The translations under genes and the position numbers were made by a program. The notes below the pieces were generated by a model. It saw nothing but the letters and a program-made list of their open reading frames with translations. It was not told the origin of the DNA and did not search any database. From Mytilus trossulus (taxonomy: Eukaryota), in contig NC_086386.1 in NCBI RefSeq assembly GCF_036588685.1, forward strand, positions 46,810,001 to 46,874,000: a DNA stretch of 64,000 nt, read 5' to 3'. This document shows, in pieces, positions 19,301 to 47,170 of this stretch. The first letter of the stretch is position 1, and the number at the start of each line of letters is the position of its first letter.

Positions 19301-21724
19301 AGTATGACGTCCTTTTTACTGAACTATTACACATTTTCATCAAGGGGCCAGCTGAGGTCCACCTCTGGGTGCGGGATTTTCTCGCTGCATTGAAGACCTT
19401 GGTGGCCTTCGGTTGTAATCTGCTCTTTTGTCGGGTTGTTGTCTCTTTGACATATTTCCTATTCCCATTCTCAATTTTAAATTATCATTGCATGCATATT
19501 TTACTTTTGCTATTCACCCTGTTATTAACACTTAAACAAGTTTGAATTACCACACATTGCTTAAGATAGTAGTACAGTTACTTTTTTTTGAACTGATAGT
19601 TGAAATCATTATATATATTAGTTCATAAAGCATCAATTGATATACTACACTGTAAAAATGGTGCTATGATCATAAACACTAATCTAAGCACATATCTTTC
19701 TCTTTTTTTACACGTTTTGGTCTAAGTATGTTTAGGTTGACAATATGCTAAGAATTGTGTTTAAGATCGAGTTTTGCTCAGAAATTAGTGGGTTTTTCTT
19801 AATTTTAACTTTAATTATAAAACAGATTTTAAAGTGTTTAAATTCAAAACATGTCTATACTTTGCTGACTGACAAATTTGCATAAAACTAGAAATGTTAT
19901 CCAAGTGTTTATTTTCTAAGCACGATTTTTACAGTTTATCTTTTTTATACAAATGAAAAAAATCATAATTCACATTGAAATTTGGGAGATCCATTCGTTT
20001 GAAGTGTTTGTGCTTTTAATTTTGCCATTTGATAAGGGACTTTTTCTTTTTGAATTTTTTGCGTAGGTCGGTATTTTTATTATTTTACTTTTAAGATATA
20101 TTTTGTTTTCCAGATGATAACACAGTAGTAGTAGCCGGAGTGGCGGCTGCAGCAGCTGTAGCAGGAATAGGCCTTACCGCACTTATTGCCTCTTTACTTG
20201 AAAAGAAAGTGTAAGTGATTATATACGTTAACAGTGGTGTTTGTTTTTTTTTTTCGCTTTTTCAACTGAGTTTTGTAGTCTGTTCTAGTCTTGTACTTTT
20301 ACACCTATGTCCTAGCAAAGGGGAGGGTTTTGCGCTTGCAAAATAGTTCAACCCCATCATATTCTATATGTGCATGTCCCATGTCAGGAGCATGTAGTTC
20401 AGTTGTTGTCGTTGGTTCATGTCTGCTATAAAATAAAATTGAGAATGGAAATAGGGGATGTGTCAAAAAGACAACAACCTGACCAAATAAAAAAACAACA
20501 GCAGAAGGTCACCAACAGGTCTTCAATGTAGCGAGAAATTTTATAGCCGACTGTACTGTATGGGTATTTCTCATTGTTGAAGTTCTGTAAAGTTACTAAT
20601 AGTTGCTTTCATCCACTGCATTTGAACACTGTTGGATAGTCGACCCATTGGCAAGCATCCCACATTTCCAAAGTAATTTTCATATAAAATCATTGTGTAT
20701 ACAGTAAGTTAGCGATATGTTCTTTTGGCATGTATAGGGGCCAGCTGAAGGACGCCTCCGGGTGCGGGAATTTCTCGCTACATTGAAGACCTGTTGGTGA
20801 CCTTCTGCTGTTGTTTTTTTTATTTGGTCGGGTAGTTGTCTCTTTGGCACATTCCCCATTTCCATTCTCAATTTTATAGTTTACAGGTACTAGATGATAT
20901 TTCACTCAATTAAGTTTATTGACAGTGTTGTGCTAATTTAAAACTTATCAAAATATATTTGTCTTAAAAGTAATGATTACCTTTTTCATAAAAGGTTTCC
21001 TATTCCTTCAACTGCTGAATTTCATTCAAAAATTTAAATACGATTTTTTTGGCATTGAAAACTTATGATTTTTGAACTACAAGAAATGTTAAATAAAGAC
21101 TCATCAAAGATAATAGGCTTATAATATTTTACGCGCATTTCGTCAACACAAAACTCGTCAGTGGCGCTCTCAATGTTAATTCGTTTGATGGTCAAATTCA
21201 TCATGGAGTTAAACAGCATAGATAAACAAATTTTGCTGTTCGGTGTGATTCAAGGCTCCATGTTGGAGACCGTCCTTTGACCTACAATTGTTCACTTTTA
21301 CAAATTGTGACTTGGATGGAGAGTTGTATCATTGGCACTCATACCACATCTTCTAATACCTATAAGGTATACAAATTTATGTAAAGCAAATCTAGTTTGA
21401 GATTTATTTGTGGGAGATAAATACCAATCTTTTATATTATATAATGTTGATTTTGTTTTAATTTTAACATTGTTGTGTATAAATGTGTAGAAATGTAGCA
21501 GATACACCTCGTTTACCTGACCTAATTTGAATGAATCGATTCCTATAATCAAATTGAAATGATATATGTATTTCAACATTTTTTTCAGGAGGGGATTATT
21601 TGGTAAAAACAACAAGGTAGATCCCTATGACAGTATGACCAGACAAGGAACAAACAGAGCCATTTTTGATGCTAATGCCCTGAATGATCCCTCAGCCAGA
21701 GAAGTACCAGCTCCAGATGTTTGA
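16364..21724 (+). CDS. Gene B: single-VWA type I membrane protein, 304 aa, intact MIDAS, very short stalk
   Basis: join(16364-16427 leader MIPSRIFLWIVIFPSNVYLLK; 17187-17741 VWA with DKSAS, GSTYT, LTDGQS; 18652-18714 DPTVTPDAVSGCPAAAASTSP; 20114-20210 TM VVVAGVAAAAAVAGIGLTALIASLL; 21589-21724 tail with DPYDSM, ending APDV*). 915 nt, open frame, all GT-AG. Confidence 0.88.
19648..19936. mobile_element. Tc1/mariner-type MITE (TA TSD)
   Basis: TA|CACTGTAAAAATGGTGCT ... AGCACGATTTTTACAGTT|TA. Confidence 0.7.
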
Positions 21725-24406: not shown

Positions 24407-27400
24407 TCAACGACGAACTATTTTGGTACCATTGTTAATCATGCTCAGTTTCAAAAACGTATGAAACTTATTAGAATGACCATTCTTATATTCATGTTTT
24501 GTTTCAATATATTTCATTCTTGAAGGCCCTAATCCATTTTGCATGTCTGGATATTCACGAGCAAGGACAGTTATTAATTCCAAACGTCGCTTTCGTTTTC
24601 TGAAATAGATGAAAAAGAAAGTTGATTTGGTTGTTTTCTTCTTCATGAAAAAATGCAACTCCAATGTAAAAAAAAATGCATTATTTGCGTAAACCTATAT
24701 TGACAGAACAAACATAAAGATACAGTTATATAGATAGCTTAGAATTGTCTTATTTCTACTGGTTAACGTTGAAAAATAATGGTAATGTAAAGAACTCTTT
24801 TGGTATGTTACATATATGAAGTGCTCTTGATGGGCCTTTCATTGCAGTTAACAGTTATAAAATTTTGATATTTATTTTCACACCAGAATCTCGAATGAAG
24901 AGATTATGTGCGTATGTTCCCACTTTTTTTAATGACAATGTATCCTTTGACCACATTTAAGGTGTATGTATTTCTCCTCTTGTTCCCTATACCACTTTGT
25001 AAAATGACGTTTTATATTTCAATATCAACATGAGAAAATGTACAATGAGTGTCAATGAGACAAATTTCCATCCCTAATTAAATGACGAAGAATTGAACAA
25101 GAATTGGTCATGTTATTATTAATTCATATAAGTCTAAGGATATTATAAATTTTTGAGACAAAATAAACTTTAATATGACATGACAAAATGCTTGTTTAAA
25201 AAACCGCATGAAAGTCACAACAATATCAGAAAGTGAATAGAAAACATTGTTAGTCTATATAAATAAATATATTTATAGAAAGTTAATATCGGGGTTTAGA
25301 TTAGATTTTGGCATAGTATTGAGTGCTAATTTTGTACTTCCTTGTAATTTTCCTTTGTTATTCAAACTTCCTGTTAGCCAAATTCGACACTGACAATACT
25401 TGCTAGGAGAAACTGGACACGTACCAAAATTGAAATATTTGGAAAAGATAATAAACTCAGTACCACTAATTTTGAAATACGAACATATTTGGTGTGTATA
25501 CTCATTCAAATTCAACAAGTATGCAGTGCTTGCTTTTATTGGTACGTCTGAAATCATTTGCCAAGGCTTGTATTAAAGAGACTTATTTTTGATGTTTTTA
25601 AATTTATATATGTTTTGGTTTTATTTTATAGAAAACGCTTTTAACTAACTATGAAAAACGTGTTGTTTCTCTAAAGAAAAGATAAGTATACCATTGTTAT
25701 GCGTTTACTTTTCTACATTGGTTAGAGGTATATGGGGAGGGTTGAGATCTCACAAACATGTTTAACCCCGCCGCATTTTTGCGCCTGTCCAAAGTCTGGA
25801 GCCTCTGGCCTTTGTTAGGCTTGTATTATTTTAATTTTAGTTTCTTGTGTACAATTTGGAAATTAGTATGGCGTTCATTATCACTGAACTAGTATATATT
25901 TGTTTAGGGGCCAGCTGAAGGACGCATCCGGGTGCTGGAATATCTCACTTCATTGAAGACCTGTTGGTGACCTTCTGCTGTTGTTTTTTCTATGGTCGGG
26001 TTGTTGTCTCTTTGACACATTCCCCATTTCCATTCTCAATTTTATCATTGTTTACATGCTCACCTGTATTTTGTTAAGTAATATACGACAAGGAATCCCA
26101 CGATGACGGTGACTAGTACCAGCACCACAGAAATAACTGACAGAATTATTATTGCACTTTCACCTACAAACAATAACATTGATAAAGTAAACAATTAGGC
26201 TGAGTTATTGTATATAATATTCAAATAGTATAGATTATAAACAAAATCCTATTTATGTTTTAAGAAATTAGAAAAGACAATCTATCGTCTATCTGAAAAA
26301 CAAGAGTCCATACACGCTACACAGAAACTCACGGGTGTATAGACTTGAATATTTGAGGGAAACCCGGATGTGTTTCTTACACAGAATAAATGTTACGTTG
26401 TTTGTTTTATTTTTCAAGTCCGTTGAGTTTGCATTCATTTACAGCGGACAGTCAGGATTGTTTGATACGGTATTGAGTTTTGTTGTGTACTTCTGATTAA
26501 AGATTAATCAAGAAAAGTGTATCAGATGCACACAGTTTATATAAAAGTAATTTTTAATCATTGGGAATTTCCTTCAAGTAATTGGCTATAAATGACGATT
26601 ATGATTTTACCTGATTATGCTTTGGGCAAAAAAAAAAGAAAAAAGAAAGAAAGAGGACCCATAGAGTGGAACTGTAAACAACAGAAATGATCAGCCAGAC
26701 AAGATTTGCGTCAACATAGACGAACAGTATACTTTTGACATGATTTTAACATTTGAATGATGATTTGGACATAAAAATAATGAGACAAAACACTTTGTAT
26801 ACTTTGGACACCGTCGAGTTGATAAGAGCAAAGTATCTATGCCTTGGAAAATAGTTCAATAATCCTCATTTAGTCGAAAATGTTATTTTGTTTTACCTTT
26901 ATAGGAATCAATTTCGTAAAGACAAATTGAATGCTCATTTGCGATTATGGCATTAATTGATTATTAGATTATTGAATATATTTATATACGCGCAATCATG
27001 ATTTTCACTTTATGTGCATTTCGGTATCTCCTTGTAACTTTTCTAGGATTTCAATCTGCAAGTAGTTAAGATATATTTCTACCAGTGAATATTTTTTTAC
27101 TTGATTGTTCTTTGAATACAGAGTCTGTTGTATACGTTGACTCTGTTGAATTTGTTGGTTCTGTTGAAAACGTTGATTCTGTTGAATTTGTTGATTCTGT
27201 TGAAAACGTTGATTCTGTTGAATATGTTGGTTCTGTTGAATATGTTAATTCTGTTGAATTTGTTGTTTCTGTTGGATTTGTTGTTTCTGTTGAATATGTT
27301 AATTCTGTTGAATATGTTAATTCGGTTGTTTCCGTTTCTGTAGTAGTCGGTATTGTTGTTGTTGTTGTCGAAGTGGTTGTAATTTCAGGGCATCCATCAA

Positions 27401-30169
27401 CTTCGGACTGTATAGCATTAGGATCTGGAAAACATATTGTGGTTTTATTTATACATATAGGCCGTTTGACGAAATGTACTCATTCGTTTCTGAATCAAAC
27501 TATGTGTATGGTGATTTTCTATAATTCACATTAGCTTAATAACATTTGCCAAATAAAATTTAAACTGAAAAAGTAATAATCGAATCGATTTTTCTATCTA
27601 AGAATAAAAATGTCACTGACTTTCCGTCTTTCAACAGTCAACAAGTATATTAATAAATAAAGATCATGATGTCATAAAAACATTGCCTAGTGGCTCAGTC
27701 ATGTTTCATATACCAAGGAAAGGGACGGGGAAATATTTTTTTATTTTTTTATTTTTTTTTGTCACTGGGGACTATGTGCGTATTTTGGTTTTCCTCTTTG
27801 CCCATGTGCTTTTCCAATGATGATTTATTTCGAAAAAAAGCCTAATGCTCTTTTTTAGAAGCCGTCAAACATCTGCTTTTTCTGTTTGTCCTTTGTTAAT
27901 AAACCAAAGGAGGGATTGATCTATAAATAAAAAGTTTGATTTTAAAAAGCGATAAATTATCCTTTTAGAATGCCACTTTAAAAGTACAATTATTTAAACT
28001 GAAAGAACAGCATTTCACATATTACTTTCAGCTGAGCATCTTATGTTGAAATGACAGCATTTTGATTACTCACACCGAACATTAGATTTCGTGTAACTCA
28101 TAGCATAGCGTTAAAATATATATTTTATTATTAAAAATAACAATTTAACTCAACTAGTTTAAACTTTCGGAACTAATCCAGAATAAATTATAGTGAAATA
28201 AATCATTTATTCAATATCTTAAATATAAAACTCATTTCAAATTTATCACATTTGAAAAGTTGTATACCAGTTGTATAAACGCACATGAAACCTATAGTTT
28301 TCACAATGTGACGCTAATAGATTGTATCGTGAATTAATTCATTTTTGATATTTTGCCATCGATGTCATGTGGTGTTCAATTTTTGATGGCTATGCATATT
28401 TTGAGTAAAATGAGAATGAAGTAAGTCCTCCGATTCCTTAAACTGGACAATTTATTGTTGTATTGACTGTTGTCAGTCATTACACATTTCCTTATTTCTA
28501 TACGGAATATAGATTAAGCAATTGAGGGATACTGTCTCTTACTTTAATACCCTGATAGATTCTGATTATGAAAGCTTGCAACGTTTCTGATGAAGTAAAT
28601 CCGGAAAAGCGCTTCGTACGAATAGAATTATTAAACGTGTTGTTTTCAATTTTTTTCAAGTAACTTTTCATTATCGTTTTTCCTTCGATATTCTCTAGAT
28701 AATCATACATACCAAGTTTGATAGTTGTATTTAAGATGTAATGGCACAGATATGGTATCTCTTCTATATAAAATATGTTTTCCGTTGAACTTGCTATGTT
28801 TGGAAAATCAGTTCTTTCAGTTGGTTCATACATCAGTGATCCAACTCCTAAAACGTAAATATCTTGAACTGACGAAGATAAGAAAAATGCGGCGAATTGT
28901 GTTTGTGTTGGAGATTGTGATAATCCATACGTGATAAGTATCATCGACGACTGAGCGTCTGTCCTCATTCCTTGCGGTGAAACATAAATATTATCTATAA
29001 TATGCTCTAATGCTTTATTCGTTTCACGACTACCAGTTAGACTGTGGTTTTTAATGGAATTTATAGCATCAAGTACACTTGATTTGTCGCTTTTATCGTT
29101 TAAATCAAACTCTGTCTTGGGAGACGTGTTGAATGTAACTACAGCCACCATACTATCATTTGGTCCTATTGTCAATCTACTTGTTATGTTGTAAATGAAG
29201 TCGATGACTTGATCAAATTCGTCTTGCGAAATATCAGCAGTGGTATCAACCAAAAATGTAATATCTGTAGGGAAAAAATATTTTCATTATCTAATACGAG
29301 GCGTACAATAAACGATGCTAACTTTGAATTACAGAAACTAAAAGAAGGAAATCATTTTTAGTATTCCACATTTTTGTAAATCACCAGCTATTTCTTTGAA
29401 TTCATAATCTGGCATTAGCATCACGACGTTTGGCACATGTGTAGCAAGACATAGCGTTGTTAATTTATAAGTTTGAATGTCCATTACATAAAAAGATTTG
29501 ATGATTGATCGTTGCCGGTAAACAACTAGTGCATATACAGGATGAACTAGATATATACGTATATAAGACGTTAACAAGAGTTACAGTTAAATGTGATGCT
29601 TGTTGTAAGTGTTACGTTATAATCTATTATTGTTTAGAACACATTTTCCATATATCGCATATAAGAGCATACGAACCAGTTTTTAAAAGTTGATTCAGCT
29701 AAAAAAAAAATATATTCTCGCCGTTTGCAATAAGAGAAACCAATTTTAACAATTACTAGAATCTAAAACTTTTGGTCATAATTAAAAAATTATTATCAGA
29801 GAAGAAAAGTCGACAATGTCCAACTATTTCAACTGAGACGAGTAATCTATTTTCTCCGACAAACATTTTCTTGTAACCCTTCTACTGCTTCTCAACAATA
29901 TGACAATTGTATATTTCGGTTATTTGTATATTGACCTATTTAACATAAACGGCAAATATATAGTGGTACTTGTGTTTTTTAATTTGAAATAGAAGAAAAT
30001 GGTTACAGAGATAAACTCTCTTATTTACAAAATAATGAACCATACAAAATTGCATGATATATATTTATTGTCAAACATACTAAAACTTACCATTTTTTGC
30101 AGACCGTGTACTGGACAACAATATGAGTATACAGACCGTAGTACACAAGATAATGATTAGCTGTCCCAT
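24407..30169 (-). CDS. Gene C: single-VWA type I membrane protein, about 421 aa, degenerate MIDAS, mucin-like repeat stalk
   Basis: join(30091-30169 signal MGQLIIILCTTVCILILLSSTRSAKN; 28713-29264 VWA with DTTAD, GSRET, ITYG; 27083-27424 DPNAIQSEVDGCP plus STE repeats; 26064-26163 TM AIIILSVISVVLVLVTVIVGFLVVYYL; 24407-24599 tail RKRKRR...EYPDM...EYKNG...IVRR*). Open frame, GT-AG. An alternative in-phase stalk donor ending the exon at 27101 is possible. Confidence 0.88.
25697..26045. mobile_element. Abundant dispersed non-autonomous repeat (other copies at about 19150-19480, 20735-20880, 47975-48115)
   Basis: Shared GGGGCCAGCTGAAGGACGC...CATTGAAGACCTGTTGGTGACC...CCCCATTTCCATTCTCAATTTT block. 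Class not determinable from sequence alone. Confidence 0.7.
27123..27325 (-). repeat. 18-bp coding tandem repeat, about 11 units, encoding (S/P/T)TE(L/S/T/P)T(Y/N/F) in the gene C stalk
   Basis: Plus-strand units such as TCTGTTGAATATGTTAAT and TCTGTTGAAAACGTTGAT. Confidence 0.9.
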
Positions 30170-31739
30170 GAATAACCATTTTCTACTGAATCCTTAGTGC
30201 CGTATTTTCTTCTTTGTGCTTGATTCAAAGTTTATGGCAACACATTTTTTCCTTATTATCTCTTGAATAATGAACTTGAACGTACACAGTTCGTCTTTTG
30301 TCTGTAATCAAGTCTGAATATTTGTTGCTTCATGTGACAGTGGAAATCTCTCTATTGCACATTTCTTTGAATTAAATACAATCACATATAACCTTTCAAA
30401 ATTAATGTTCCCTTCTCTATTTTTTCCTTTCGTTAGTCATATTTCAATTAACTGTTTTCAACACATCAAATTTCAAGGCTGAATATGAGACAAATGTAAT
30501 TATGCAACGTTCATTGTAAGAATGTTAAAATGAAGTGACACTAGACGGTATGACTATGAAACAATAACCTTTTAATAAAATCTCAATTTTCTTTTTGTGT
30601 TTTAAATTGTGATCAGTCTTTGATAATTCAATCATTTTATTGCTGAATGAACCGTGGTGCACAGTAAACAATGTTGACACGATAAGACACGGTAGCTATG
30701 AAAATCACACAGTAGCAAACACTTCCATCTATTGTTTACTGAAAGGGTATACAGTGATTTTGGTTATCAAGTTATGTACCTATTTACGCCTTGATTTAAT
30801 CATTTGAACATTTTTTTTCACTTTTATTTTTTAAACTCTTAAATCACTGACTATATTAAAGACTTGTTAATTAGCAATAAACGACAAAAGGTCTGTTTAC
30901 TTCTTTTGTCCAAAACTATTCACACCAATAGAGAACAGAAGAGGATACAAGCAGCGTATAATTGAAACGTAATCTACATGTGGTATTTTGAAAATATGAA
31001 ATCTACATGTGGTAATTTGACATATATCATATTTCTCTAGATTTTGTTAATATAAAGGTTCATGTCATCTTTTGTTATTAACATTATTATTTATATTATG
31101 TCGTGATTATAATGGTATATTACACATAGAAACAGACGTGGGTCATTTCTAAAATGAGCCATAAATTTTCCTTATTTATAAATATGCACTGACATGCAAT
31201 ATATTCCATATGCATAAGAATCAGGTCTTGTCTACAGTGAAAGAGGAAATAAACTCATCATAGATACATGGATTAAATTTTGTATTGACGACAGACGCGT
31301 GTTTCGTCTACAAAAGACTCATCAGTGACGCTTGAATACGCTTTGACATTTTTTTATATTGATTTTCGGACCAAGGTTTTGTGTATAACTTGGGACTTTC
31401 CGATTAGAATTTTCCTTGGAGTTCGGTAATTTGGGTAATTTGGTTTCTAGCACTAAAAAAAAGAATCAGTTTTTAAAGGTTTTATCCGTCTACATCACAT
31501 GTTGTTCATAAGGTATTTGTATGTATGAAACATCAGGACAACATTAATGATATCTTTCCATTATAATTTAGTATCAAAAATAAAAATGTAAAATCTAACA
31601 CTATTTGTAAATACTTTTCAATTGTGTCCGGAAGCCTTCAATTATCAGGAAATAGATGACAATTATTTTGTTCATTTTTATCTTTTAAATTATCATTTAG
31701 CGTCATGTTTCCCTATTATAGTTTTGAATAATTGAATAA

Positions 31740-32440
31740 TTCAAAGTTCGGTGACTATCTTAATTATATCTTTTCCATCGAATTTGAAATTTAATTGACG
31801 ACAGATACACCTGAATCTGCTTCATATCGTGAGTGATTTATATCAGGAAATTGACTATGGCATATTGATGGAAATATAAACGGCAGAAGTGATGAATTCA
31901 GCTTTTTAATTGGGAACTTTCAATTTATATTAGGGAACATTCAAACAGGCCTGCATATGGAATATATATCTCCTGATATTTTAAGTTTGCAATCGTAATG
32001 TCATTACCTTGATAGAAATTTTTTGCTTACAATGAAGATGTCCAACTATGCGTTCAAAGCGTCAAGTCTGAAGTCATCCTTTCTTAAAATAATCTGCCGC
32101 CTTCATGACTTGGTTGATAATTGTAATGGAATATATGTTTCACAGATTTCAATGAATATGCCCAAAAAGGCGTAATAACAATCCCGTCCTCCTTTCTTTC
32201 AATTTTAACATCACGGAATTGACCATTTCCATGGTTTTACTTACATGATCAACACGAATGTTACGCATGTTGCGCATGATTTGCTCAACCTTCTAAAAAA
32301 TCTGAGATCATGCCCGTTGTGTTGCTCAACCTTTAGTTTTAACCTTTTGTTTTGTAGATTATTTGTTGCTTTTTCGTTTTTTTTGCCATATCATTGTCGC
32401 TTTAATGTTGACTTGTAAGTTTGACTATCACTTTTGCATC
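31740..32440 (+). mobile_element. Highly decayed Penelope-like reverse transcriptase relic
   Basis: TTDTPESASY, DEFSFLIGNFQF and PAYGIYIS motifs of the RT C-terminal region, followed by the family 3' tail. Confidence 0.6.
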
Positions 32441-33280
32441 TGTTGTCTCTCTTTTTCTTCTCTCATGTGTTGAAAGATATCTTGGGAAAAGTGAATACCA
32501 AAACGTTAAGTTTCTTAGAATACATCACCATACAAGATAATTTTGCATATACTTCTCTATCTAGTTGGTTGTATTTTATTTTTTTTTGTATCAAAATAAA
32601 TGAAACAAGACACCAATAACTGCACGTATCGCCTGTCTTTTAGGCAAAAATATATAAAGCTTTAAGCTGATAAACATACAGGGCATGGTTCAATTTTTGG
32701 ATGTTGTTGCAATAATAATAGCATAGTTTTGCTACTGTGACATACATGATAATGTTATAAATTAAACTGATAGTTTTCTCGTTTGAATTTTCTGCATCAT
32801 CGTCTCGGAGCCTTTAGGGTTGACTATATACGACTATTTCACATTGTTGAATGTTGTCCGCTGACATATAACTGCTTATATATAATTATATCCACGTCAT
32901 GTAAAGTATGCTACATATTTGTCTCATTGACAATTATACCACATCTCTTTATTTGTGTATAGCAATTTTTAGAGAAGATTATGTGTAAAAGTTGTAGAAT
33001 ATACAACTATTAATTGACTGATAATTATCAATAGAGGCTTGTGACGAAACACATCGGTCAAGAAGAAATGTCAAATAAAAAGATATGTATTTTTTTGTGA
33101 TTGAAATATTCCTAAATATTTTAATGGATTAACAAGATAATCAGATTATATTTTATTATAACAATATTTAAGATTGCTAACAGATTATGTACACTTTATT
33201 CTCCATTCTTTGCTAATATTGAGTCTATTGACTGATATCAAGAGTTATGGTCCCCTTTTTGTAGATAAATCTGTTTCCTC

Positions 33281-36200
33281 CTAAACTTTTGTCATTGTCT
33301 CTTTATCGGCATTGTCTATCGTACAGTCATGATTCGTCTTTTCCTCTCTGTCCTTCAATTGTGTAAAGAATGATAAGATTAATAAAAGAATATTACTCCT
33401 TTAAATACATGCTCATATCATTTTATTCTAGAAACAATTCACATGTAAAGCAAGTGGTATAACTGTTAAAACGCAAATGTTTCCCCTGACCTACCTTATC
33501 ACAAACAAACTTCTAATCTATTCCTATATGGACTATTCGAAATCCCGTAGCACAGTAATGCGCTTTTTTTGTAAGTAAAACTATGGTCATATTTCCTCAA
33601 ATCCAAAGTGAAATTAATATTCAGATTGGTCAATTGTTTGTTTTTATCTCGCAATGTGTTAACATCTAAATAAATGCAGAAATACTTTAGATATTATTTT
33701 AAGATTGTTAAATACTAGAAATCTCACATTGGAAATTAAAGAAATGAATTACACACATACCTTTTCCTACTACACAAAAGGTATAAAACCAATATTATCA
33801 GGACCAAATTTAATAAACCCGATGACAGGATACCAATTATGACACCAGTATGTAAACCTGGAATATAAAAATTAAATATAGAAACATTCTGCATGTGCCT
33901 GTCCCAAGTCAGTTGCATGTAGTAAAGTGGTTGTCGTTGTTCCATGTCTGTCATAATTTTTTTATTAATTGTTTTGTAATAAATTTGACCATTGGTTTAT
34001 ATTTTCATATCGGGGACTTTTATAGCCGACTGTATGGTATGGATTTTTCTCATTATTTCAAGATATGTTACATCCACTTCATTTAAACTTTGATGGGTAA
34101 TTGTCTCATTATCAGTCATACTATATCTACTTAATTAAATACATAAATAAATCTTAACAGTCAAAAAAAAAGAAATGAATAATTTTAGTCATGATTGAAT
34201 TAATGTCTTCATTACACATATATTCTATTGAAATTATTCTTGAAGATAGCTAACTTTGTGTGTATGATTTTGCAAGGTATTTTGTATAACAAACGTTAAA
34301 TTTCACATTTTTTATAAATTCGACTTTCTCCTAATAATTTAGAAACAATTTTTTCTCACCGTTTCTCAATAACAAAGTTATCATTGCTGCAGAATTTGAT
34401 ATATATCATCAGAAAAATGTAAACCGTTTCTTTAATAAATTCTTGAATTGATCAGCGTCAGATCAGCATTATTTGTGCAATTAATGTAGTTCCTTGCTAT
34501 TTCAAATAGGTGCTGTCGAAAAATAAATAAAATACCTTTGTCACTTTCGGAAACTGTTTCCTCTGTTGAAGTTAGTAGTTCCGTTGACGTCGGATAACAT
34601 GAAACACAACCATTCAAGTGTATAGCTGTTGTTCCATTATCTTGAATGAAAGTTAACAAATATCTGAAAACGTCATGATTAAGGTTTATTTACACAGTAT
34701 AAAATAAAGAACTTCTTTCATTATTACTAATTATATAATCATTATTAATATTTCTATTTAATTTTCAATTATAATTTAGTGCTGGAAAGAAAATCATGCA
34801 TAATCAAAGAAAAAATACACAAACAAAAACAATACAATTCAAAATTATGATATGGTCATTTCGATTTTTCCATGCATTACTTTAAATAATTTTTAAGTCT
34901 TTAATCATACTAAAATGTAAATTATATTGATACCAGTGTCCAATTTAAGGCTTGTTCTTTCTTGAGATAAAGATTTTTGTGAATATGTTGATACTGTTGT
35001 AGTTGAATTTGTTATTTCTACTGAATTTGTCAATTCTGTTGAAGTTGAGTATGTTAATTCTGTTGAATATGGTAACTGTGTGCTTTTCCTTTCTGTAGTT
35101 GTTAATGATGTTGTTGTCAAAGTGTTTGTTTTTGTTGAACAACCATCAACTTCAGACTGTGTGGCATTCAAATCTAAAAAAAAACACAGTTATTATATTT
35201 CTTACCCTAAGCTCTGTGGTGAAATATTCTCATTTACTTCTGTAACTATAGAAGCAATTTACTGTGACGGTATAAAATACTCGTTAGCTCTAAAATCAAC
35301 TTATTATCTGTTCATAAAAATATTACACTATACTTTTAAATAAAAAAAAAAAGCCAGGTAGTTTTTTTCTTTCATCAGAATATTTCTAATCACGTATCGA
35401 AAATATTTAAAAAAATGAAAGTAATATGATGCAACAAATTATTTATATGCATAATAGTGAACAGTATCGAAATCACAGAACTTTGGCAACTTGGTCGACT
35501 CTAAATCTTTAAATGCAGAAAATCTATACCACAGCTCGTTAAATATCTGTTGAATTTTACGTATCTCCTTAATGTATAAAACATCCGCTTTGGCTACATA
35601 CTTTTCATTTCAATTCATGGCTAGAAAAAAAAGGCTCAGAAAAAAATTGTGTGTTCTATAAACGTATTTACACTTTTGGTATTTAGCTGTATTTTGCCTC
35701 CGAATGACCTTACATCACCTCCGAATAACCTTTTTGACGTCAAGCAACAATCACTTTTTAGTTGTGACGTCATATGTTTTGAATTATGAAGTCAAAGTTT
35801 ACGGGAACCTGTGTGATGTTATGTAATGGCGGACAAATTTGCATACAAGTGTAAATACGTCTATTATTGTTAAGAACTCGGATAAACCCGTTTTATGTTT
35901 TCCATATTCCATCATTAACTGTTTTCATGTATAACCATTTATATAAACGGGCAGACCTTTCAAAATGATGAGATCTACCTTTCGAGTTTTCTCTCAAAGA
36001 CAATTTTTACCTATTTTTTTTTGTCACTACCTTGAAGCGCATAATAGGTACCAATAAACTTTTATAAGCCAAAGTGATACGCAAAACAATAGTTACATTT
36101 AGTAGTGATCGTATCGTAATTGGTCGCCTTTGAAAACCGATTTATACTTATTTTATCGTTTCTAAATGGTAAAAAAAGCGTACGGTCACCTATAGTTGTT

Positions 36201-39200
36201 AATGTCTGTGTCATTTGGTCTTCTCATTGGCAATCATATCACATCTTCTTTTTTTTATATATAATCATAGTATTCAATTTCTGGGAACTGTTATACATGG
36301 AGAGAAGCTTTAAGTAGAGAACACGATGGGACATATTGTCCAAATATTCGAAATCGTGGGAACTCATTTAATGAGAATACGTTCTTTGTAAGTATTTTAT
36401 TTTTCAATATTGCTTTTTAACACCAGAATTATAGTATCTATAGAGAAACTCTAATAGCAGAAATGAGGAGCAAGACAAGGTCTATTTATAAATAAAATGG
36501 CAGAAATCGTAACTCAGCTACTTATTCGATTGATTGATAAGTGTTTGCTTTACGCCGCATTAGCACAAAAAGGCTATATCGCGGCGATCTACTTATTCCA
36601 GTGATTGTTTTTAAATGAGAATTCTTACTCTATAGTAGCTAAAGAAAATGTGTTAATTTCAAAAATTATAAGTAAAGAGAAGATCTGCAAATAAGCCACA
36701 TAGCTGAAATTCTAAGTCCACTCCTTATAGGGGTTATTTCCACTAAGAAATATAATAAATGTTTCAACCTTGTCAAAAAGTTTTAAAAGACATTTATGTT
36801 CTTCCATTTTTTTCTACTTGTAAAAAACATCCTCTTTGAAAAGATACAATTTCTATAAATCCACATTTTTATACATGGTTTCATAATTTCCATTATCGCT
36901 ATACATGTTTTGAACAATACAAGAATGATATGTATATGAACTAAATCCTTTAACTGGTCCCAAGTAGATATAGGAAGATGTGGTGTGAGTGCCAATGAGA
37001 CAACTCTCCATCCAAATAACAATTTTAAAAAAGTAAACCATTATAGGTCAATGTACGGCCTTAAACACGGAGCCTTGGCTCACAAAGTATATAACTTTTT
37101 TACTTTTATTACTAGTTCATTATAGTCAGGAAAATGGCCATTGTTATATTATAGTCCGATTCTGTGTGTGTGTGTGACATTTTAAAGTTGTGTTGCCGTT
37201 GTGTCGTTTATTTTCTTTTACATTTGAGTGTGAATTCACCTTACTATAAGACGTGTCACGGTACTTTCCTATCCCAAATTCATGTATTTGGCTTTGATGT
37301 TATATTTGTTATTCCAATCAGATTTTGTCTAAAGTTCAGTCCGTTTCTGTGTGTGTTACATTTTAAAGTTGGGTCGTTGTTCTCCTTTTATATTGAATGC
37401 GTTTCCCACAGTTTTAGTTTGTTACCCCGATTTAGTTTTTTGTCCATAGATTTACGAGTTTTGAACAGCGGTATACTACTGTTACCTTTATGTATTTCGA
37501 AATAAAGCATACATACCCAGTTTAATAGTTATATTTAAAATATAATTGCACAGATTTGAAACTTCTTCTACATAAAATATGTTTTCTGGTGAACTAGCTA
37601 TATTTGAAAAATCAGTTCTTTCAGTTGGGTCATACATCAGTGATCCAACTCCTATGACGTAAATAGCTTGAACAGTTGATTTTAAAAAAAAAGCAGAGAA
37701 TTGTGTATTTGTTGGAGAGGTTGACTGTCCATACGTGATTAGTAGTAACGAAGACTGCGCGTCTGTTCTCATTCCTGATGATGAAATATAAATATTGTCT
37801 CTAATATGATCTAATGCTTTGTGCGTTTCACGACGACCATTTAAACTGTAGTTCTTGATTGCCATAATTGCATCCAGTAAACTAACTTTGTCACTTATAT
37901 CGTTAAGATCGAACTGTGTCTTTGGTAACGTGTTAAATGTGACTAGAGCCACCATATAATCATTCGGTCCTATTTTTAATCTATTAGTCATGTTGTAAAT
38001 GAAGTCTATGATTTGAGTGAATTCGTCCACTGCAACATCAGCAGTTGTATCAACCAAAAATGTAATATCTGTGAAAAGAAAATTGACAACATAAATGAAT
38101 ACAAGATGTACCGGTACTACAAAAAGACCGATAATATATCCAAAAGGCAATAAAACTTTTTATGCGACAATATTTGAAATTATTATGATAATGAAGATTT
38201 CCTTTCGAGAGTTCTAGTGTCTGTAAGACATGTTTGTCACCTTTTTTCTGCAACTGCAAAAAAACTGAGCGTCTTAAGAATTGGTACCGATCATATACAT
38301 GTATTTGTATGCTATAACACATTCTCCGCTCTATCATTTCTATATTTCTTGATTTTCTCATGCATATAAAATATGGATGTTTCATGTAAGTTATTTCCAT
38401 TGATACACACATAAGAGATTTAATGTCGGGTATTTTGTCTGGCCATGCCCCCATAACCTGGACCAAATTTTACTTGTTTTGTTGTGTTGAAATTGCTGCG
38501 ATCTATTGTCCTCGAATTTCAATATTTTTGTGATTTTACTTTTTTCAAACAACTTGTCGAAATGAAATTTTTCGATTTTCATTGTTTTTCAAACTCGTAT
38601 TTGATTTGCCAGTCGTGTGCAAGTGAAACGCACGTCTGACATATAAGAGTATAACCTGGTATTTTTGATGAGTTTTATTTAAAAAAGAAATCTCAAAAAA
38701 GCAACCAGCCGATGCATTTTCATACTTTACGCATAAATCAACCTGTATGAGACTTTTCATAAATTAAAAAAAAAGATTACTTGGGAAACTATTTCATACA
38801 TGTTCAGGGTGAGAACAAATAAATGAATTATACAAAAGACAGGTTATGCAATTTATGGGTCAAACGGGATGAAGGCCGGGTGTTTTGTTTTGCTACTGAA
38901 AATGAGGTTGTGTTTGATGAGGGAACATATTTTGCATTGCATCATTCATGTGTGGTCAATTGTACAAGGAGTTTTAACTTGAATTGTGTTTTCTGTTTTC
39001 TGTACATGAGACAATTTTATTCAATGTTTTTGACAACCATAGTAGCAAACCGGACGCCTGACATAAGCAAAGGTCAGACTCCCAGAAAGGGTGAAATTTT
39101 AGAAATGACAACATTTTTATATCCTCGCCAAAACTTATACAAAGTTATAAAGGAGGGGCGAAAGATACCAGAGGGACATTCAAATTCATGGATCGAAAAT

Positions 39201-39481
39201 AAACTGACATCGACAAGGCTAAAAAGAAAAACACAGACAAAAAATAGTACACAAGATACAGCATAGAAAACTACAGACTAAGCAATACGAGCACCACCAA
39301 AATCTGAATGTTATATCCGTAAAGATATGCAGATCCTGCTCCACATGTGGCATCGTGTAAAATTCACACACAAAGTTGAAACATATAAAAAAACAAACTC
39401 ACCATTTTTTGTAGACAGTGTTCTGTTCATAAGCAGCGTTATGCAAAGCGTGGTACACAAAATGGTGAATAAATGTTCCAT
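33281..39481 (-). CDS. Gene D: single-VWA type I membrane protein, about 379 aa, chimeric (5' C-like, 3' E-like), degenerate MIDAS, truncated tail
   Basis: join(39403-39481 signal MEHLFTILCTTLCITLLMNRTLSTKN; 37517-38068 VWA, about 75% identical to C by hand count; 34934-35173 DLNATQSEVDGCS stalk; 34536-34640 DNGTTAIHLNGCVSCYP stalk; 33761-33857 TM GVIIGILSSGLLNLVLIILVLYLLC; 33281-33347 tail EEKTNHDCTIDNADKETMTKV*). The last acceptor is uncertain. Confidence 0.82.
36528..36588 (-). mobile_element. 61-bp 5'-truncated retroposon (SINE/LINE 3' end) with 10-bp TSD
   Basis: CTACTTATTC direct repeats at 36518-36527 and 36589-36598. The insert ends in an (ATCA)n-like tail on the minus strand. Confidence 0.75.
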
Positions 39482-40513
39482 CCTTATCAATCGGATCTGA
39501 ATATTATGCTCTTTAGTAACTTTTGTTAATACAATGCACATACGAATTTGTTTTTTGGTAAAAATTTAACTTCATGTGATAAATTGCATCTTTCTATTAA
39601 ACATTTCGTAATCATATATAGCCTTACAAAATTAAATATCCTTTCAATTTTTCTACTTCGTTAAGTGATATTTTAAATAAATATTTTTGAACACAATAAC
39701 TTTCAAGGATGAATATGAGACAAATTTAATCATGCTGCGAGTATAGTCACAATGTTAAAATTACCTGACACTAGACGGGCTGAATAAGAAACAATAACAT
39801 TTTGATAAAATCGCAATCTTCTTTTTGTTTACTTTCTTTTTTTCAAATTGTGATCAGCCTTTGGTAATTCAATCCCTTTGTTCATGTTGTTGTTGAATGA
39901 ATCGTGGTAAACAAAAACAATCTTTATACAATCAAAGTTATCTAGCCATGAAACAATCATTTACAAATATTATTTACTGAAAACGATATGCAGTGACTCG
40001 GTAATCAAGTTTTGTACCATATAAAGTCATATGAAGTCTCTCTTTTATTTTGTTCATGTGAACTATTTTTCATATATACATAAAAAAAAACAATATGTAT
40101 CTTTATATGAATTGATGATTTGCACTGAAACACGCACGGGCATTGTTAATAAAATAGTCAAAAGACTTATAAGAATTCACTGACATAAAATACCAGAAAA
40201 TACCTATCAATTTATGGCAAAACTTTCACAATTAATATGTACAAAGTATTCTTGTCAATATGAAGGCTGCTTCGCAGTGAACTTCATTAAATAAAAACTT
40301 TAACTTGCCTTCAACAAAAACATTGATTCATAAAAAGATTGACAAACGGGTGGAAGAAAAGACCGATAAACATATTACCAAACGTATTGCTAATTTGTGA
40401 TTGGACAGTTAAATAGCAAAATCCAGTATATGCCACTAAGTGTTCTATTACTACATTTGTACTTTACATTTGGTAAGTGTTACCTATTAATGTGTTTATC
40501 CCGTTTCTGTATT

Positions 40514-40822: not shown

Positions 40823-42250
40823 TTTATACAACTGATTGGTCCATTATTTTCTCCATTTATTTTTAAATTGATTTTCTAGACCATTGGAAAGAGGTATATG
40901 TACCGATCGGTTATTTTGGTGTTTTTTATAATTTAATTTATATTCTCCAAATTTTTGTTGGTTTTTTTTTGTTGTTTTTTTTGTTGTTTACCATTAACCT
41001 GCTCAAGGTTAAAGATGTCATTATTTCTCTCTTTAATTCATTTCTATCAGACATAAATAAGACACCCCATAGAGCCTTTTGTTAACTTTATATCAATGCA
41101 TACCATTTTCTAATTTACTAAATCTTCTAGTACCTGTCATGTGAAATTGTGTTTAATAGTAGTCCGAAATCCAATAATGTAAATATGTGTTTTCGTATGT
41201 CAGGCTACACCACTGGTTATAATACCATTAGTAATACTTCTTCAAACTATTAATGCAACTGTCACATAAGTGAGAGGTTTATCTAGATATAAAACCAGGT
41301 TTAATCACCATTCCCTACATAAGAAAATGGATGTGTAACCGAGTCATTAACATGACAGATGTAACCATTCGTCATTTGATTTTGCCATTTGATTATGGCT
41401 TTTCAATTTGAAATTGTCCTCGGACTTTTAGTATTTTTATGATTCTACTTTTTAATATAACAAAATTTTAACATTCCGTATAACAAAAAGTAAAGTAACA
41501 AAAATACCAAACTACGAGGACATTTCAAAATGGAAGTAAAAAATTGAATGGTATAGTTATAACATCGAACACATCAAACTGGCTGTTGTAAATATTACAA
41601 ATTTAAATTAGACAAAGTTGGTTAAGAAACACAAATAAGGAAGGACACTCAAGTTTATTGAAATCATATCTAACAATAAAACCAGGTTCATTAACCAACC
41701 ATATTTTATTACAATGTTCTGTACGAAGTCAGGCATGGCATTTGATTTCAAATAGTTCATTTCTAAGTAAGCTGGTGTTTCTTTTTGTAGCAGTTTAGTG
41801 TTTTTGTTGTTCCGTTGTTTTCCTCTTATAGCTGATGTGCATCCCTCGGTTTTTTTGGCATGTTTCGGTTATCGATTTATGATTATTGAAATGCAGTATG
41901 CTACTGTTGCCTTTATTTAGAACACTTGGTGATGTACTTCGTCAAATTAATTGATATACCTTAAGTATTTGTTCGGAACGGTATCTAGTACAAAATGATG
42001 TTAAGACCAACAACATCAGATGAAAAGTATGTTATTTGCAATCGTCTGAATCCCGAATTCCATTTGAACAATTTATTCTTCTTGAGCTTTTCATATATAT
42101 ATATATAAAATAAAAATCAGAAAAAATAAAAAACCAAGTGCAATTAAAGATTAATTTCATATACCTTTTTTCTTTAATTATTCATTTATTAAGTTGTGGT
42201 CATGAAACAGGTCTAGCTAAATAATGTACTTAAACACAACCAATTATATT

Positions 42251-45200
42251 TCATATAGGAATTTTCACATCAATGATAGACGATGTGACACTTCTTTCAC
42301 CAAGATTTTCATACACTGAAGACAGTGTATCATTTTTGTCCATTGCTTTAGTAGTTTTGGAACTGAGGCTGGTAGTGTCTCTCTTGTACATGTGTCTCTT
42401 TTCTCCTAAACTTGTGTCATTGTACTCATTTACAGCCTTTACTATATCATCTTCTGGACGAATCTGGTCCTTTTTGTCTTTTCTTCTAAATGAAATAAAA
42501 AAATAATAAAACTGTAATTTGATTTATAGAAGATTCTATGAACTATAGTTATTTGACTCAAGATGAAATTTTTATTCTTTCCCTTAAAGCAAGCGTAAAA
42601 TGTTCTAAAGCAGAAAGTAACTCATCGAAGATTAAAATCATATAATTGTGTACGCGAGACGCGCGTTTTGCATAGATTACCTTAGCTGGATTTGGCAAAA
42701 CTTTTAGATATTTTGGTCATCAATGCTCTTCAACTTCGTACTTTATCTGGTCTTTTCAACCTTTTGGGATTCGAGCGTCACTGATGAGTCTTTTGTAGAC
42801 GAAACGCGCGTCTGGCGTATATACATAATTTTGTCCTGATATCTATGATGAGTTTATTTGTCTACATATATCTCAACAGTGGCACTCGAAACAACAAAAA
42901 AGTTGAAATTAAAGTCCAAATCAAAAATTGACGACCACTGGAAACCGAAAATAAAGTTTGTCTGTGGGTTTTTTTTTTTAGGAATCTGACGTTTTTAATG
43001 ATAAAATTAATTATAAATAACACTCATCATACCTTTTTCTTTTATACAAGAGGTATAATACGCAAGCTAAAATTGCTAGAATCAGTAAACATGCTAGCAG
43101 GATGCCTACTACGGCACCGATATCTAAACCTAAAATAAAGAAAATAGATATTTTTCAATTAGCCTTAACAATTAAAAAATAAACAAAAACAAATATGGGT
43201 ACTATTAAATCTCAAGTTGATAAATATGAAATAAAGCTAAAGTAATGGAAACCAATTTCGGGTTAAGATTTTAACCTTAGTAATTATAAATCAGAGCTGA
43301 TAATGAAATTGTGTTTATTTGTGCATCAGACATGACAAATATTTTAATAACCTGCATACGGTCAAGATGTAAACAGGGCTTATAATACGTTTATCATAGT
43401 TCGTGATATGTGTATTGGAGGAATAAAAAAAAAATGATTATTATACTAGTATACAACTTCAATACAAGATCATACAAGTGAAATTAACACATCACATTAA
43501 CACAAATTTGGTAGAGATGGAGCTGATAAAATAATAATCGGAATAAATAAATGTATGTGTCAGTATGGTTAGTATATTTGTCTTCATCCTCGACTTTTTC
43601 ATCACAATTTGCATTAATTGCTCCAAGGGTTTTCTCAATCTTTCAAAATGTTTGCAGTTGATTCATTCAAAATTGACAAGTTACTTTGACAGTGAATTAT
43701 TATAAGTATTAATGCGCAATAGTGTTATCGTAGTTGATGAAAATTATCCAATCAAATACCTTCGTTTGTTTGGGAAATTGGCGCCTCAGTCATTCTTTCT
43801 GTTGAAGTTATTTCTGTCGTCGTTGGCTCTACCCACTCATCACAACCATCCACCATTGTAACTGTTGTTTCATTATCTTTGAAGTAAAAAGGTGTATTTG
43901 TGAACATATCTTACATCATCAAACCATCTGAAGAGGTTAATAGAATTATTATAAGTAAACTGTAACAGAGTGTTAATTACCCCGACCTTACGCGTACGGT
44001 CGGACCATAAGTGTATATACCCATATGGTCATGATCATACGCGTATGGTCCAAATACTCATATGGTCTGGAACATTTCCATAGTTTACATTGTAGATTAA
44101 ACAAACGTGTGGCATTATTCACAAAATTTTAACAACCCATCATATGAGAAAGCTGATGATACTGCAAAATTGACAGATTATGGAAAATTTAAGAATTTAT
44201 CCATAGAATCTAATGGAAGGACAGTCTTGCTCTTTCTTAGACGTGAGTCTTTGTATTGTCTTCCAATACTTATTACTTTAGTAATATTTTTTTGTTTTAG
44301 GTACCAACTTTTCTTTAAATGTTTAATAATTATCACAATGTCTTTAACAACAACATGGCGAAATACCAAAAAGTATTATGCTCTTAGACATTCAAATTCA
44401 AATTCGATTTGACACATTTTTAAATTTTAAATTTTAACTACACAAGAAGTGCAAATAAATGCAGAAATTTGAATTGTAAATTATATCTACATTCAAATAT
44501 GTCTGAATAATTAAGTATATAATAATAACTTTATTATAATTGAGATTGTGACACATGTACAGTGATGACTGCTGTACACCTATTTTTACCTATTTTCTCT
44601 GTTTTGTTCACGCATCGTTGTAAATATATTGGAACTTGATGCAACAGTCATACAAGTGAGAGGTTTAGTGCTATCAAACAAAGTTTAATCCAACTTTTTC
44701 CGCCTATGAAAATGTCTGTACGAAGCCAGAAATATGACAGTTGTTATCCATTCGTTTGATGTGTTTGAGCTTTTGATTTTGTCATTTGATTAGGAATTAT
44801 ATCTAGAAAGTGACTATGAGGGTCGGTTGATGAAAAAAACTTTACAACTAAAGAGATGATTTGAGCTTCCCAATTGCGACATTTTCATCTTTAAACCAAG
44901 AGTTTCAAATGGTTAATTTGAAATCAACACTTCGTAAATTTTACAGACGCCATCATGAGTTAGTTGCCGTTATGGAATATTCGTCATACGTATGGTATCG
45001 GATATGTTCTCTTTGTCGTAATTACAATCCCGTTCCATTTTCACGAACGTGTCACCTACCAATTTTCTGGCTTTGTTATAACATGACCAACACGACAGGT
45101 GCTACATGTAAAGCTGGATCTGCTTACCCTTCCGAAGCACATGAAATCACCCCCAGTTTTTTATGGGGCTCGTGTTGTTCTTGTACTCCTATTTGTTACA

Positions 45201-47170
45201 TTTTGGTCACGTTTCATTGTCAATATAATGGAATCTGATGCGACTGTCGTACAAGTGAGAGGTTTCGCGCTATAAAAGCAAGTTCCATCCACCATTTTCT
45301 TATTTTTGTAAATGCCTGTACCCGGTCAGGAAAATGAACGTTAATGTCCATTCGTTTGGTGTGATTTATAATTTGATTTTGCCAATTGATTAGGGACTTT
45401 AAATTTCTGTTTTGAATTTTCCTCGGAGTTCAATATTTTTGTGATTTTACTTTTTATAATAAGTATTACAGTAACCATTAACTATTCAATATCTTATGCT
45501 TTATTAGATGCAAAATGAATTATAGTTAAACACCAAATAAATTAAAATCATGCTGAAACAATTCCATATCAATCTAAATGCAAACATAAAAGAGGGGGGA
45601 TAGGAGGGGTCCTAATCCCGAAATCCCGGGCTTAAAAACACGAAATCCCGAGGTCCCGAAATTCGAATAAAGAATTCCCGGATCCTGAGAGGGTCAATCC
45701 CGAGCTTAAAAACAACCGATCCCCGCCGGAATCCCGATAAAGGTCCTATCCCCCTCATAAAAGACTAGGATATCGAACATATCAATGGAATCGTGTTAAA
45801 ATATCTGATGACACGATAGATATAAAAAAAAAACTGCATTGGTTTGTACATTTACCATTCAGATTATTATTTGAGACTCACCAATCTTAGGTACAATGGA
45901 TGGCACAATTCCACAAAGATTTATAAATCCACCAATATATTCAACATAATAAGAGTCGGGATCGTTTGCGATTCCCTGCAATTCGTCATTTGTTTTAGAT
46001 AAATCTGAACCTATGCCTATAGCGAATACTTCTGCTCCATATGATGTTCTGAGATCGTTTGCTTTGTTTATAGTTTGAGGTGTATTAGTCGAAGGGCCGC
46101 TTTCTATCACAATAACAATTTTACCAGCATCACTGCGGCCCCCTTTTATGGAAAGGTAAAGTGTTTTCGTATATGTTAATGCGTCCATAGTTTTCCTCGA
46201 AGGAACGAATGATTGAGAGTATGCTATGTAGTTTATACCTGTCAGAAGACTTGCTTTGTTAGCATAATCGTCTAACTCAAATTCGGCGTTTGCCTCGTCA
46301 TCAAACTTAACGACTGCCATTCGAATGTCATTGTCGCCAATAGTAAGATATGATGTCACATTGTAAATGAAACTCATGGTCAATGCATGGTCAGTTGCTG
46401 ATATCGAACTTGAAGCATCTAACAACCAAATAACATCTACAACACAACAAATATGAGTAATCAATGTATGTAGCTACACTTGTAACGGAAGACGGTTTAC
46501 TTCAATTAAAACTCCCTTTTTAATCGAACTAGAATTGTCAATTTGTTAGTAAGAGAAATGTTTATCTTTAGAAATTCAAAACATTTATGAAAAAATTTGC
46601 GGGCTTTTATAGTAAGAACATTAATACATGACCAATATAGCTTACAAAGAAATTCTAACAGTAAAGAAATTATACTTGTCAGTTGATTTGTCAAATACGC
46701 ACATCGCAGATAGCAGCAGAGTCCAGAAATATAAATTTTCTAAAATGGCATCTACTAGTTGTAAATGAGTACAAATAAAGAAATATTGCATTCAATGGTT
46801 CATGTGACATTTTGAACATGGTTTGGCAATCTCTTGTTTTCTTTTATCATCCCTGGATGCTAAATTGTAGTCCTTCCCTTCTAGTATTCAAAACTTTTAA
46901 AAATTGCTTATAAATTACATCAAGAATAATAAAAGTATGTGTCTTCTCCTTCCAGAAACGATTGTATGCAACGCACAGCAAAGAAATGCAACTTAATTTT
47001 CTCTTAGTAAATTCACAATCCCCTCATACCGACTATTTTAATTCTGAATTTGCCTCCGCAGCCATCCTATTCAAGAGTATTTATTATGTTCCCATACCTT
47101 TATAAGATCCTCTACAGTTAGTAAACAAAAGTCCAAACATTATCAGAAACACCGTTGTTCTCAACATCAT
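42251..47170 (-). CDS. Gene E: single-VWA type I membrane protein, 358 aa, partial MIDAS, ITIM-like tail motif
   Basis: join(47098-47170 signal MMLRTTVFLIMFGLLFTNCRGSYK; 45882-46436 VWA with DASSS, PSRKT, IESG; 43760-43876 DNETTVTMVDGCDEW stalk; 43033-43129 TM IGAVVGILLACLLILAILACVIYLLY; 42251-42485 tail with SSVYENLG, ending DVKIPI*). 1077 nt, open frame, GT-AG. AATAAA at 42185-42190 on the minus strand. Confidence 0.9.
44800..45180 (+). mobile_element. Penelope-like retroelement 3' relic (internally deleted)
   Basis: KRDDLSFPIA and LNQEFQMVNLKSTLRKFYRRHHELV motifs, followed by the family tail. Confidence 0.65.
45592..45756. mobile_element. 165-bp MITE with 6-bp TSD and internal ATCCCG repeats
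   Basis: ATAAAA|GAGGGGGGATAGGA ... TCCTATCCCCCTC|ATAAAA. Confidence 0.82.

Follow-up and report, generated by a model that had tools for sequence, protein, structure and literature searches.

Within a 64,000-nucleotide (nt) stretch of the 1.3-Gb genome of Mytilus trossulus (G000:C14:46810001-46874000, hereafter the window), we analysed five genes, A to E, each with one VWA exon, and found that one of them, gene D, is a chimera whose 5' half comes from gene C and whose 3' half comes from gene E, and that it lies between these two intact parents. We propose, with a probability of roughly 0.74, that D arose through one tandem duplication of about 9 kb, extending from intron 2 of E to intron 3 of C, in an ancestor of the sampled Mytilus species, and that changes in its tail and in its cysteines followed.

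All five VWA exons of the window score above the cut-off of Pfam PF00092. Genes A, C, D, and E are located on the minus strand and gene B on the plus strand, and on the minus strand the order E, D, C is seen, which is the transcription order given by the original prediction, a reading of the bare sequence that preceded this analysis. Genes C and E are tandem paralogs, both with PF00092 and with exon phases in common, and each has five coding exons (signal, VWA, one stalk, transmembrane (TM), and tail); gene D has six. The spliced model of E is identical to record P0008 (Mytilus trossulus). The features of the three genes, in the order of transcription, are as follows.

47098..47170, minus strand: gene E signal-peptide exon; parent, outside the duplicated block.
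45882..46436, minus strand: gene E VWA exon; parent, outside the duplicated block.
43760..43876, minus strand: gene E stalk exon; source of D stalk 2, where the duplicated block begins.
43033..43129, minus strand: gene E TM exon, 97 nt; source of the D TM exon.
42249..42485, minus strand: gene E tail exon; three tyrosines, SVYENL resembling an immunoreceptor tyrosine-based inhibitory motif (ITIM).
39482..40331, minus strand: D upstream region; homologous to C upstream 30170-31068, core 39610-40018 at 72%.
39403..39481, minus strand: D exon 1, signal peptide, C-type, 79 nt; 70% nt identity to C, z 10.7.
37517..38068, minus strand: D exon 2, VWA, C-type, 552 nt; non-canonical metal ion-dependent adhesion site (MIDAS).
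34934..35173, minus strand: D exon 3, Thr/Ser-rich stalk 1, C-type; spliced to exon 2 in an X7 contig (putative RNA).
34641..34933, minus strand: D intron 3, 293 nt; contains the C-to-E junction.
34536..34640, minus strand: D exon 4, stalk 2, E-type; AAG acceptor as in E, D-specific CxxC.
33761..33857, minus strand: D exon 5, TM, E-type, 97 nt; from per-exon identity, tree, and structure model.
33281..33347, minus strand: D exon 6, coding part, tyrosine-free tail; in-frame CAG acceptor inferred, 1-nt deletion relative to E near 33296.
33085..33280, minus strand: remnant of the E-type tail and 3' flank, past the D stop codon; 0 of 100 shuffles as high.
30091..30169, minus strand: gene C signal-peptide exon; from per-exon comparison.
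28713..29264, minus strand: gene C VWA exon; PF00092, per-exon comparison.
27086..27424, minus strand: gene C stalk exon; donor 27101 or in-frame donor 27086 homologous to that of D, where the duplicated block ends.
26064..26163, minus strand: gene C TM exon; parent, outside the duplicated block.
24407..24599, minus strand: gene C tail exon; parent, outside the duplicated block, one match in this genome.

The exons of D were compared with those of its neighbours by global nucleotide identity, with z values from 200 shuffles (20 for the VWA exon). D matches C in the signal exon (70%, z 10.7), the VWA exon (81%), and stalk 1 (77%, z 16.3), and it matches E in stalk 2 (72%, z 8.9), the TM exon (65% ungapped across 97 of 97 nt, z 9.6), and the tail (62%, z 5.7). 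The cross comparisons remain at chance level, with z 1.0 for the TM exon and z -0.2 for the tail of D against C, and z 1.4 for the signal exon of D against E. Upstream of the gene, 39610-40018 is 72% identical over 426 nt to 30380-30780 of C, and the match reaches 40331 in D and 31068 in C. The upstream region, signal, VWA, and stalk 1 of D had been attributed to C, and identities of 70-81% with a chance-level match of the signal exon to E bear this out. The attribution of stalk 2, TM, and tail to E holds for the DNA (62-72%), but the tail is now frameshifted and mostly untranslated. Exon sizes and motifs were also as described, with AG/GT ends, one open frame, the AAG acceptor of stalk 2, and a TM exon of 97 nt. 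At the protein level, the heads of C and D are 75-84% identical (75% for the VWA domain in this genome), and their TM and tail segments are unrelated. Among the 150 of 214 candidates that were scored in this genome, only C is close to the D head (75%), the next match being at 39%. For gene A the per-exon identities are approximate, and only its VWA exon was used in the trees.

In the head tree, D groups with Mytilus C with support of 100/99; a grouping of the D and E heads is rejected by the approximately unbiased (AU) test (p-AU 2e-23), and so is a grouping of C with the outgroup C sequence P0005 that excludes D (p 0.0099). In the tree of the 3' half (87 columns), D groups with the E-type sequences, again at 100/99, and placing D beside C is rejected as well (p 0.00016; 0.019 once the outgroup C is added). 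Congruence of the per-exon trees had been set beforehand as a possible refutation; the trees are significantly incongruent, and the chimera stands. The other possible refutation, a hidden E-type stalk exon in intron 3 of C, was not found (303 of 500 shuffles as high, positive control 0 of 500). A shuffle test likewise found no C-type stalk exon in intron 2 of E, and the stretch between E and D gave no trace of an E head (55 of 100 shuffles as high). In all, ten tests for hidden or remnant exons gave none, and the positive controls were recovered, with 0 of 500 and 0 of 100 shuffles as high.

The matches of D to E and C form a single collinear same-strand repeat of about 9 kb, from intron 2 of E to intron 3 of C, and both ends of the duplicated block lie inside genes. 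The copies are offset by 9236 nt (stalk), 9272 nt (TM), 9126 nt (tail), 9238 nt (upstream), and 9312 nt (signal), and the offsets fall to 8804 nt (VWA) and 7749 nt (stalk 1) because intron lengths differ; on either side of the spacer they agree within about 190 nt. A tandem copy of a segment made up of the 3' half of E, the spacer, and the 5' half of C would yield the order E, C5'/E3', C. The claim that the junction joins intron 3 of C to intron 2 of E, giving two stalk exons, was supported, and D keeps the stalks of both parents. Every intron up to the TM exon is in phase 1, and the C/E junction therefore reads in frame. A breakpoint at about 34660-34850 had been proposed; weak C-like sequence can be followed as far as about 34851 and E-like sequence from about 34651 onward, so that weak alignments give about 34650-34850, but the position is safe only within D intron 3 (34641-34933). 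Taken alone, this intron has no significant match to intron 3 of C (183 of 500 shuffles) or to the end of intron 2 of E (210 of 500), and no significant shared sequence was found at the C/E junction. A weak match of D intron 3 to 45572-45437 in intron 2 of E (7 of 500) was dropped, since 3 of 62 window tiles scored higher.

The original prediction had described D as an anti-Lepore-type product of unequal crossing-over. The layout between intact parents agrees with this description, but an in-register homologous exchange does not agree with six exons against five, near synonymous saturation between C and E (proportion of synonymous differences, pS, 0.72), and the lack of shared sequence at the junction. 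The out-of-register junction, the near-saturation of C and E, and the failure to find shared sequence speak for a tandem duplication whose ends do not match, and by this comparison D would be better named a tandem-duplication chimera than a strict anti-Lepore product. The event may have been an unequal exchange via short repeats, or a replication or end-joining error. In the available text on the anti-Lepore HBB/HBD genes of laurasiatherians (PMC4041002), the fusion gene resembles D: its 5' part comes from the downstream paralog and its 3' part from the upstream one, both parents flank it, one gene is gained, and it was likewise retained for long; gene conversion acted alongside there, as it may have in D. 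The globin fusions described there involve a homologous in-register exchange between similar paralogs, whereas D joins non-equivalent introns of near-saturated paralogs and has an extra exon; the globin parents were typically inactivated or deleted after fixation, whereas those of D are intact. Tandem duplications that fuse a gene's 5' end to the 3' end of the adjacent gene gave 76 chimeras among 15 lines in the part of PMC5460883 that treats them, and this mechanism, which ignores gene boundaries, fits D. The chimeras in that account are young and segregating, whereas D is old, is present in four species, was made from two members of one receptor-like family, and shows later tail and cysteine changes.

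To establish polarity, we considered distant relatives and further family members. P0005 has a C-type head (52% identical to C and 49% to D), one stalk, and the TM and tail of C; P0011 has an E head, one stalk, and the TM and tail of E. One stalk exon each is also found in genes A, B, C, and E and in the paralogs at 42.237 and 42.250 Mb of the same contig. Judged by these single-stalk outgroups, in which a C head goes with a C tail and an E head with an E tail, D is the derived gene. The two-stalk build with a truncated tail is also present in M. californianus XP_052077778 (P0004) and M. edulis XP_071126148 (P0184), and a D of the same build is found in M. galloprovincialis OPL33086 (P0102), a partial record, so that D records come from four Mytilus species, this genome's included. 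A profile search with P0004 yielded mostly multi-VWA proteins, plus P0102 and P0165. In M. californianus and M. edulis the D and E records have adjacent accession numbers, and gene order outside this genome rests on these numbers and on the fused model P0019. This model (M. edulis CAG2195769.1) fuses E to the next C/D-type VWA exon, which is likely a gene-prediction artefact, and it places a C/D-type head directly downstream of E. In other mussels, C is represented by the fragments P0001 and P0002 and by contigs of X24, in which the C VWA exon is spliced to the C stalk (the runs X6, X7, and X24 are putative RNA). A search for the C tail among longer proteins gave nothing (2 candidates, weak evidence), with no named full-length C ortholog. 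The reciprocal E/C fusion was not found: all five distinct full-length E-head clusters or members carry E tails, population haplotypes lying outside the search. From the sequences examined, D is older than the split between the californianus/coruscus and edulis groups, the deepest among the Mytilus E sequences. Between-species nodes of Mytilidae in general fall at 3.0-39.8 Mya in the portion of PMC11241113 consulted, which is not a date for this split.

The tail of D can be aligned with that of E over about 270 nt of DNA, with one base of a tyrosine codon gone. The D frame shifts and reaches a stop five codons later, at 33281, and the three other D records stop at the matching position; the truncation is thus present in 4 of 4 D sequences and leaves a tail of about 27 residues without tyrosine. 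Cytoplasmic tyrosines number zero in D (3 of 3 relatives and the window model) and three in E (6 of 6), counts from which P0015 was left out. The motif (S/T)VYENL occurs in 6 of 6 E tails, that of the distant P0011 included, and 4 of the 6 strictly fit the ITIM consensus, to which the C tail of the window has no match. The tyrosine lost from D is the membrane-near (E/D/Q)Y, which is also found in C, P0005, and two oyster proteins. Through the 1-nt deletion in this codon D has therefore lost every cytoplasmic tyrosine, including the ITIM-like VYENL of E. The idea that recombination re-pairs heads with different membrane and signalling ends was thus not supported as worded: D kept the E anchor and lost the E signalling end by frameshift, and only one re-pairing was found, too little for a general process in this family. 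Three of 4 D tails end in T-x-V/I/L, a possible PDZ-type end to which we give no weight, and gene E (tail 42249-42485) is a candidate inhibitory receptor with a VWA head.

The cysteines of D changed as well. Single-stalk genes have a cysteine where the VWA domain ends and another where the stalk begins, and the two likely form a disulfide pair. D has two stalk cysteines for one VWA-end partner, and in 4 of 4 D sequences a new cysteine stands three residues after that of stalk 2, at a position that is Trp in E, and creates CxxC. This new CxxC lies at the stalk-2 cysteine, which would otherwise lack its usual VWA-end partner.

Several observations weigh against this account of D. The middle of the spacer and the introns have little or no significant homology; 3 of 7 spacer tiles lie weakly on the diagonal (2-3 of about 57 random windows) and the others do not, and turnover has left the introns and the spacer middle with different repeats. 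P0005 and P0011 may come from different species. The splice from stalk 1 to stalk 2 is absent among the read alignments listed and rests on gene models, those of three other species joining the two exons. At the orthologous tail-acceptor position (33348-33360) this genome has no AG; an in-frame CAG at 33350-33348 gives a D protein of 379 residues, and four other nearby AGs give 363-369 residues, none with a tail tyrosine. The synonymous divergence (dS) is 0.55 between the 5' halves of C and D (210 codons) and 0.94 between the 3' halves of D and E (83 codons), and in 0 of 4 rooted 3' trees do D and Mytilus E form sister groups to the exclusion of P0011.

This difference in dS would fit an event that was older or took two steps. 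The E-type 3' half would then stem from an earlier duplication, of E as a whole or in an older chimera, and the C-type 5' half would be younger via replacement or gene conversion from C. When the 3' tree is rooted with C, D falls outside E and P0011 at 94/91, and the head of M. edulis D is a mosaic, its first two thirds being 85-88% identical to C and its last third 88% identical to D. Permutation of the breakpoint, at the protein level only, gave p 0.06 for P0184 and p 0.03 for P0001, with two other rows not significant (0.47 and 0.37). The mosaic suggests a later exchange between the C and D heads, and such conversion could make the D and C heads seem younger. The pS intervals overlap, however (0.39 with a confidence interval (CI) of 0.30-0.47 for C-D, and 0.53 with a CI of 0.40-0.67 for D-E), and the root of the 3' tree depends on the outgroup, having moved with it and twice fallen inside Mytilus E. 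The AU test of the one-step topology, D with Mytilus E, gave p 0.087, 0.006, 0.47, and 0.089, and is weak for the same reason. In plain identity the 3' half of D reaches 41-54% with Mytilus E and 36-39% with P0011, E and P0011 being 43-47% identical, which favours one step; the lack of an E-head remnant between E and D and the agreement of the offsets across the spacer also argue against two steps. We therefore consider such a history unlikely, and D would still be a chimera under it. The VWA heads of P0184, P0001, P0002, and P0019 look like C/D mosaics, a hint of gene conversion or of extra copies.

The two stalks of D could be explained without any junction if the ancestor had two stalk exons, of which D kept both and C and E each lost one, the TM and tail of C having diverged fast; the start motif and the cysteine that the stalk exons of all paralogs have in common agree with this. 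Such a history is largely refuted and hardly credible, because the introns of C and E hold no remnant of a second stalk, six other family genes of this genome have one stalk exon, the TM and tail of C are conserved in the distant P0005, and the trees are significantly incongruent. It is also very improbable that D is a decaying pseudogene, or a truncated C copy beside an orphan E fragment, even though the missing chimeric splice, the altered tail acceptor, and the partial flag on P0003, which by eye matches the first 245 residues of D, would fit. The junction is open and in frame, with the same structure in the gene models of three other species, and the D sequences have D-specific changes in common (CxxC and the same truncation point). 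In X7, one contig has D exons 2 and 3 joined by splicing and extends for a further 378 letters, unplaced among the alignments listed. The ratio of nonsynonymous to synonymous divergence (dN/dS) is below 1 in both halves, at 0.31 for C-D and 0.50 for D-E, values that point to purifying selection on both. A single tandem duplication thus remains our preferred origin of D.

Gene D is predicted to encode a type I surface protein with a signal peptide, one VWA domain, a long disordered Thr/Ser-rich stalk, a TM helix, and a short tail. An AlphaFold2 model of M. edulis D P0184 (18-row alignment, predicted local distance difference test score (pLDDT) 71) has a confident VWA fold, a disordered region at 227-325, and one long TM helix; Foldseek gave an E value of 6e-15 to the VWA domains of collagen VI alpha3 N2 and PTMP1. 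The nearest Atlas clusters by features were TRAP (0.82) and ANTXR (0.79), which are leads only. The VWA (integrin I-domain) fold of D is also that of the single-VWA type I membrane proteins TRAP/MIC2 (apicomplexan) and ANTXR1/2, of mussel PTMP1, and of collagen VI, but D has no TSR or Ig domain, identity is at most 27%, and PTMP1 has two VWA domains. The canonical MIDAS consensus is DxSxS, T, D. Aligned to PTMP1 and collagen VI, C and D have the non-canonical set DxTxD, T, Y, a variant partly common to P0005 and P0165, and E keeps DxSxS. The database names collagen, matrilin, and vitrin were rejected, as they reflect the VWA domain only. Such names call for a secreted protein with Gly-X-Y repeats, or with several VWA domains plus EGF or LCCL domains; the full models contain no Gly-X-Y run and consist of one VWA domain, a stalk, and a TM helix.

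As we see its working, D would be made under a C-type promoter and would present a C-like head on a two-part stalk, without phosphotyrosine docking. A tail without tyrosine could not recruit phosphotyrosine readers, and for this reason a non-signalling role is proposed: tentatively, D may be an adhesion or recognition anchor, or a decoy receptor beside C, that binds C-like ligands. The sections consulted of PMC2832619 describe CEACAM1/CEACAM3 and Siglec pairs that, like C and D, carry similar heads on different membrane-proximal and cytoplasmic parts and arose by duplication and recombination; in those pairs conversion keeps the heads alike. They have Ig domains and opposing ITIM and ITAM-like (activating) motifs, whereas C and D have VWA domains, D is tyrosine-free, and C lacks a strict ITIM. 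By this analogy C and D might be a mollusc paired-receptor system on VWA heads, in which one duplication set the head and promoter of C on the E anchor as a decoy, selection removed the tyrosines and added CxxC, and recurrent conversion matches the heads in each lineage, but we consider this doubtful. ITIM-bearing invertebrate receptors are known, as noted in the part of PMC12065747 that concerns them.

Elsewhere in the window, short Thr/Ser/Glu-rich units are repeated in tandem inside the C stalk at 27086-27330 (minus strand), which also has two in-frame donors 15 nt apart. Genes A (6276-13767, minus strand) and B (17187-20214, plus strand) are divergently oriented members of the signal-VWA-stalk-TM family with a canonical MIDAS; B seems to end directly after its TM exon, and an almost perfect tandem array of 32-nt units lies between them at 14948-15283. 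Fragments resembling retroelement repeats occur in intron 2 of E (44550-45460), in the D-C spacer (31820-32320), and at the left end of the window (3900-4400), and low-complexity Gln/Ala/Pro/Thr-rich exons of an unrelated gene lie at the right end (59658-60173 and 62952-63449, minus strand). Outside the window, two further single-VWA TM paralogs are located 4.6 Mb away (G000:C14:42236843 and 42250225), and a similar pair on the small contig C26 (3585514 and 3601161) is possibly a duplicate or an alternative haplotype.

No description of the E-D-C locus was found in the literature, and six accessions gave no paper, most subscription papers and supplements lying outside the search; D is apparently undescribed, and its class, a chimeric gene from tandem duplication, is already known. 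Most tandem-duplication chimeras are known as young and soon lost, whereas D is old, with intact parents and a polarity fixed by outgroups. For work on the retention of chimeras it is a clean example, with two plausible post-fusion changes, the loss of the tail tyrosines and the gain of a cysteine beside the orphaned one. Our findings also point to a family of bivalve membrane proteins with a single VWA domain and a mucin stalk, mislabelled in databases as collagen or matrilin, one member of which, gene E, has a conserved ITIM-like tail.

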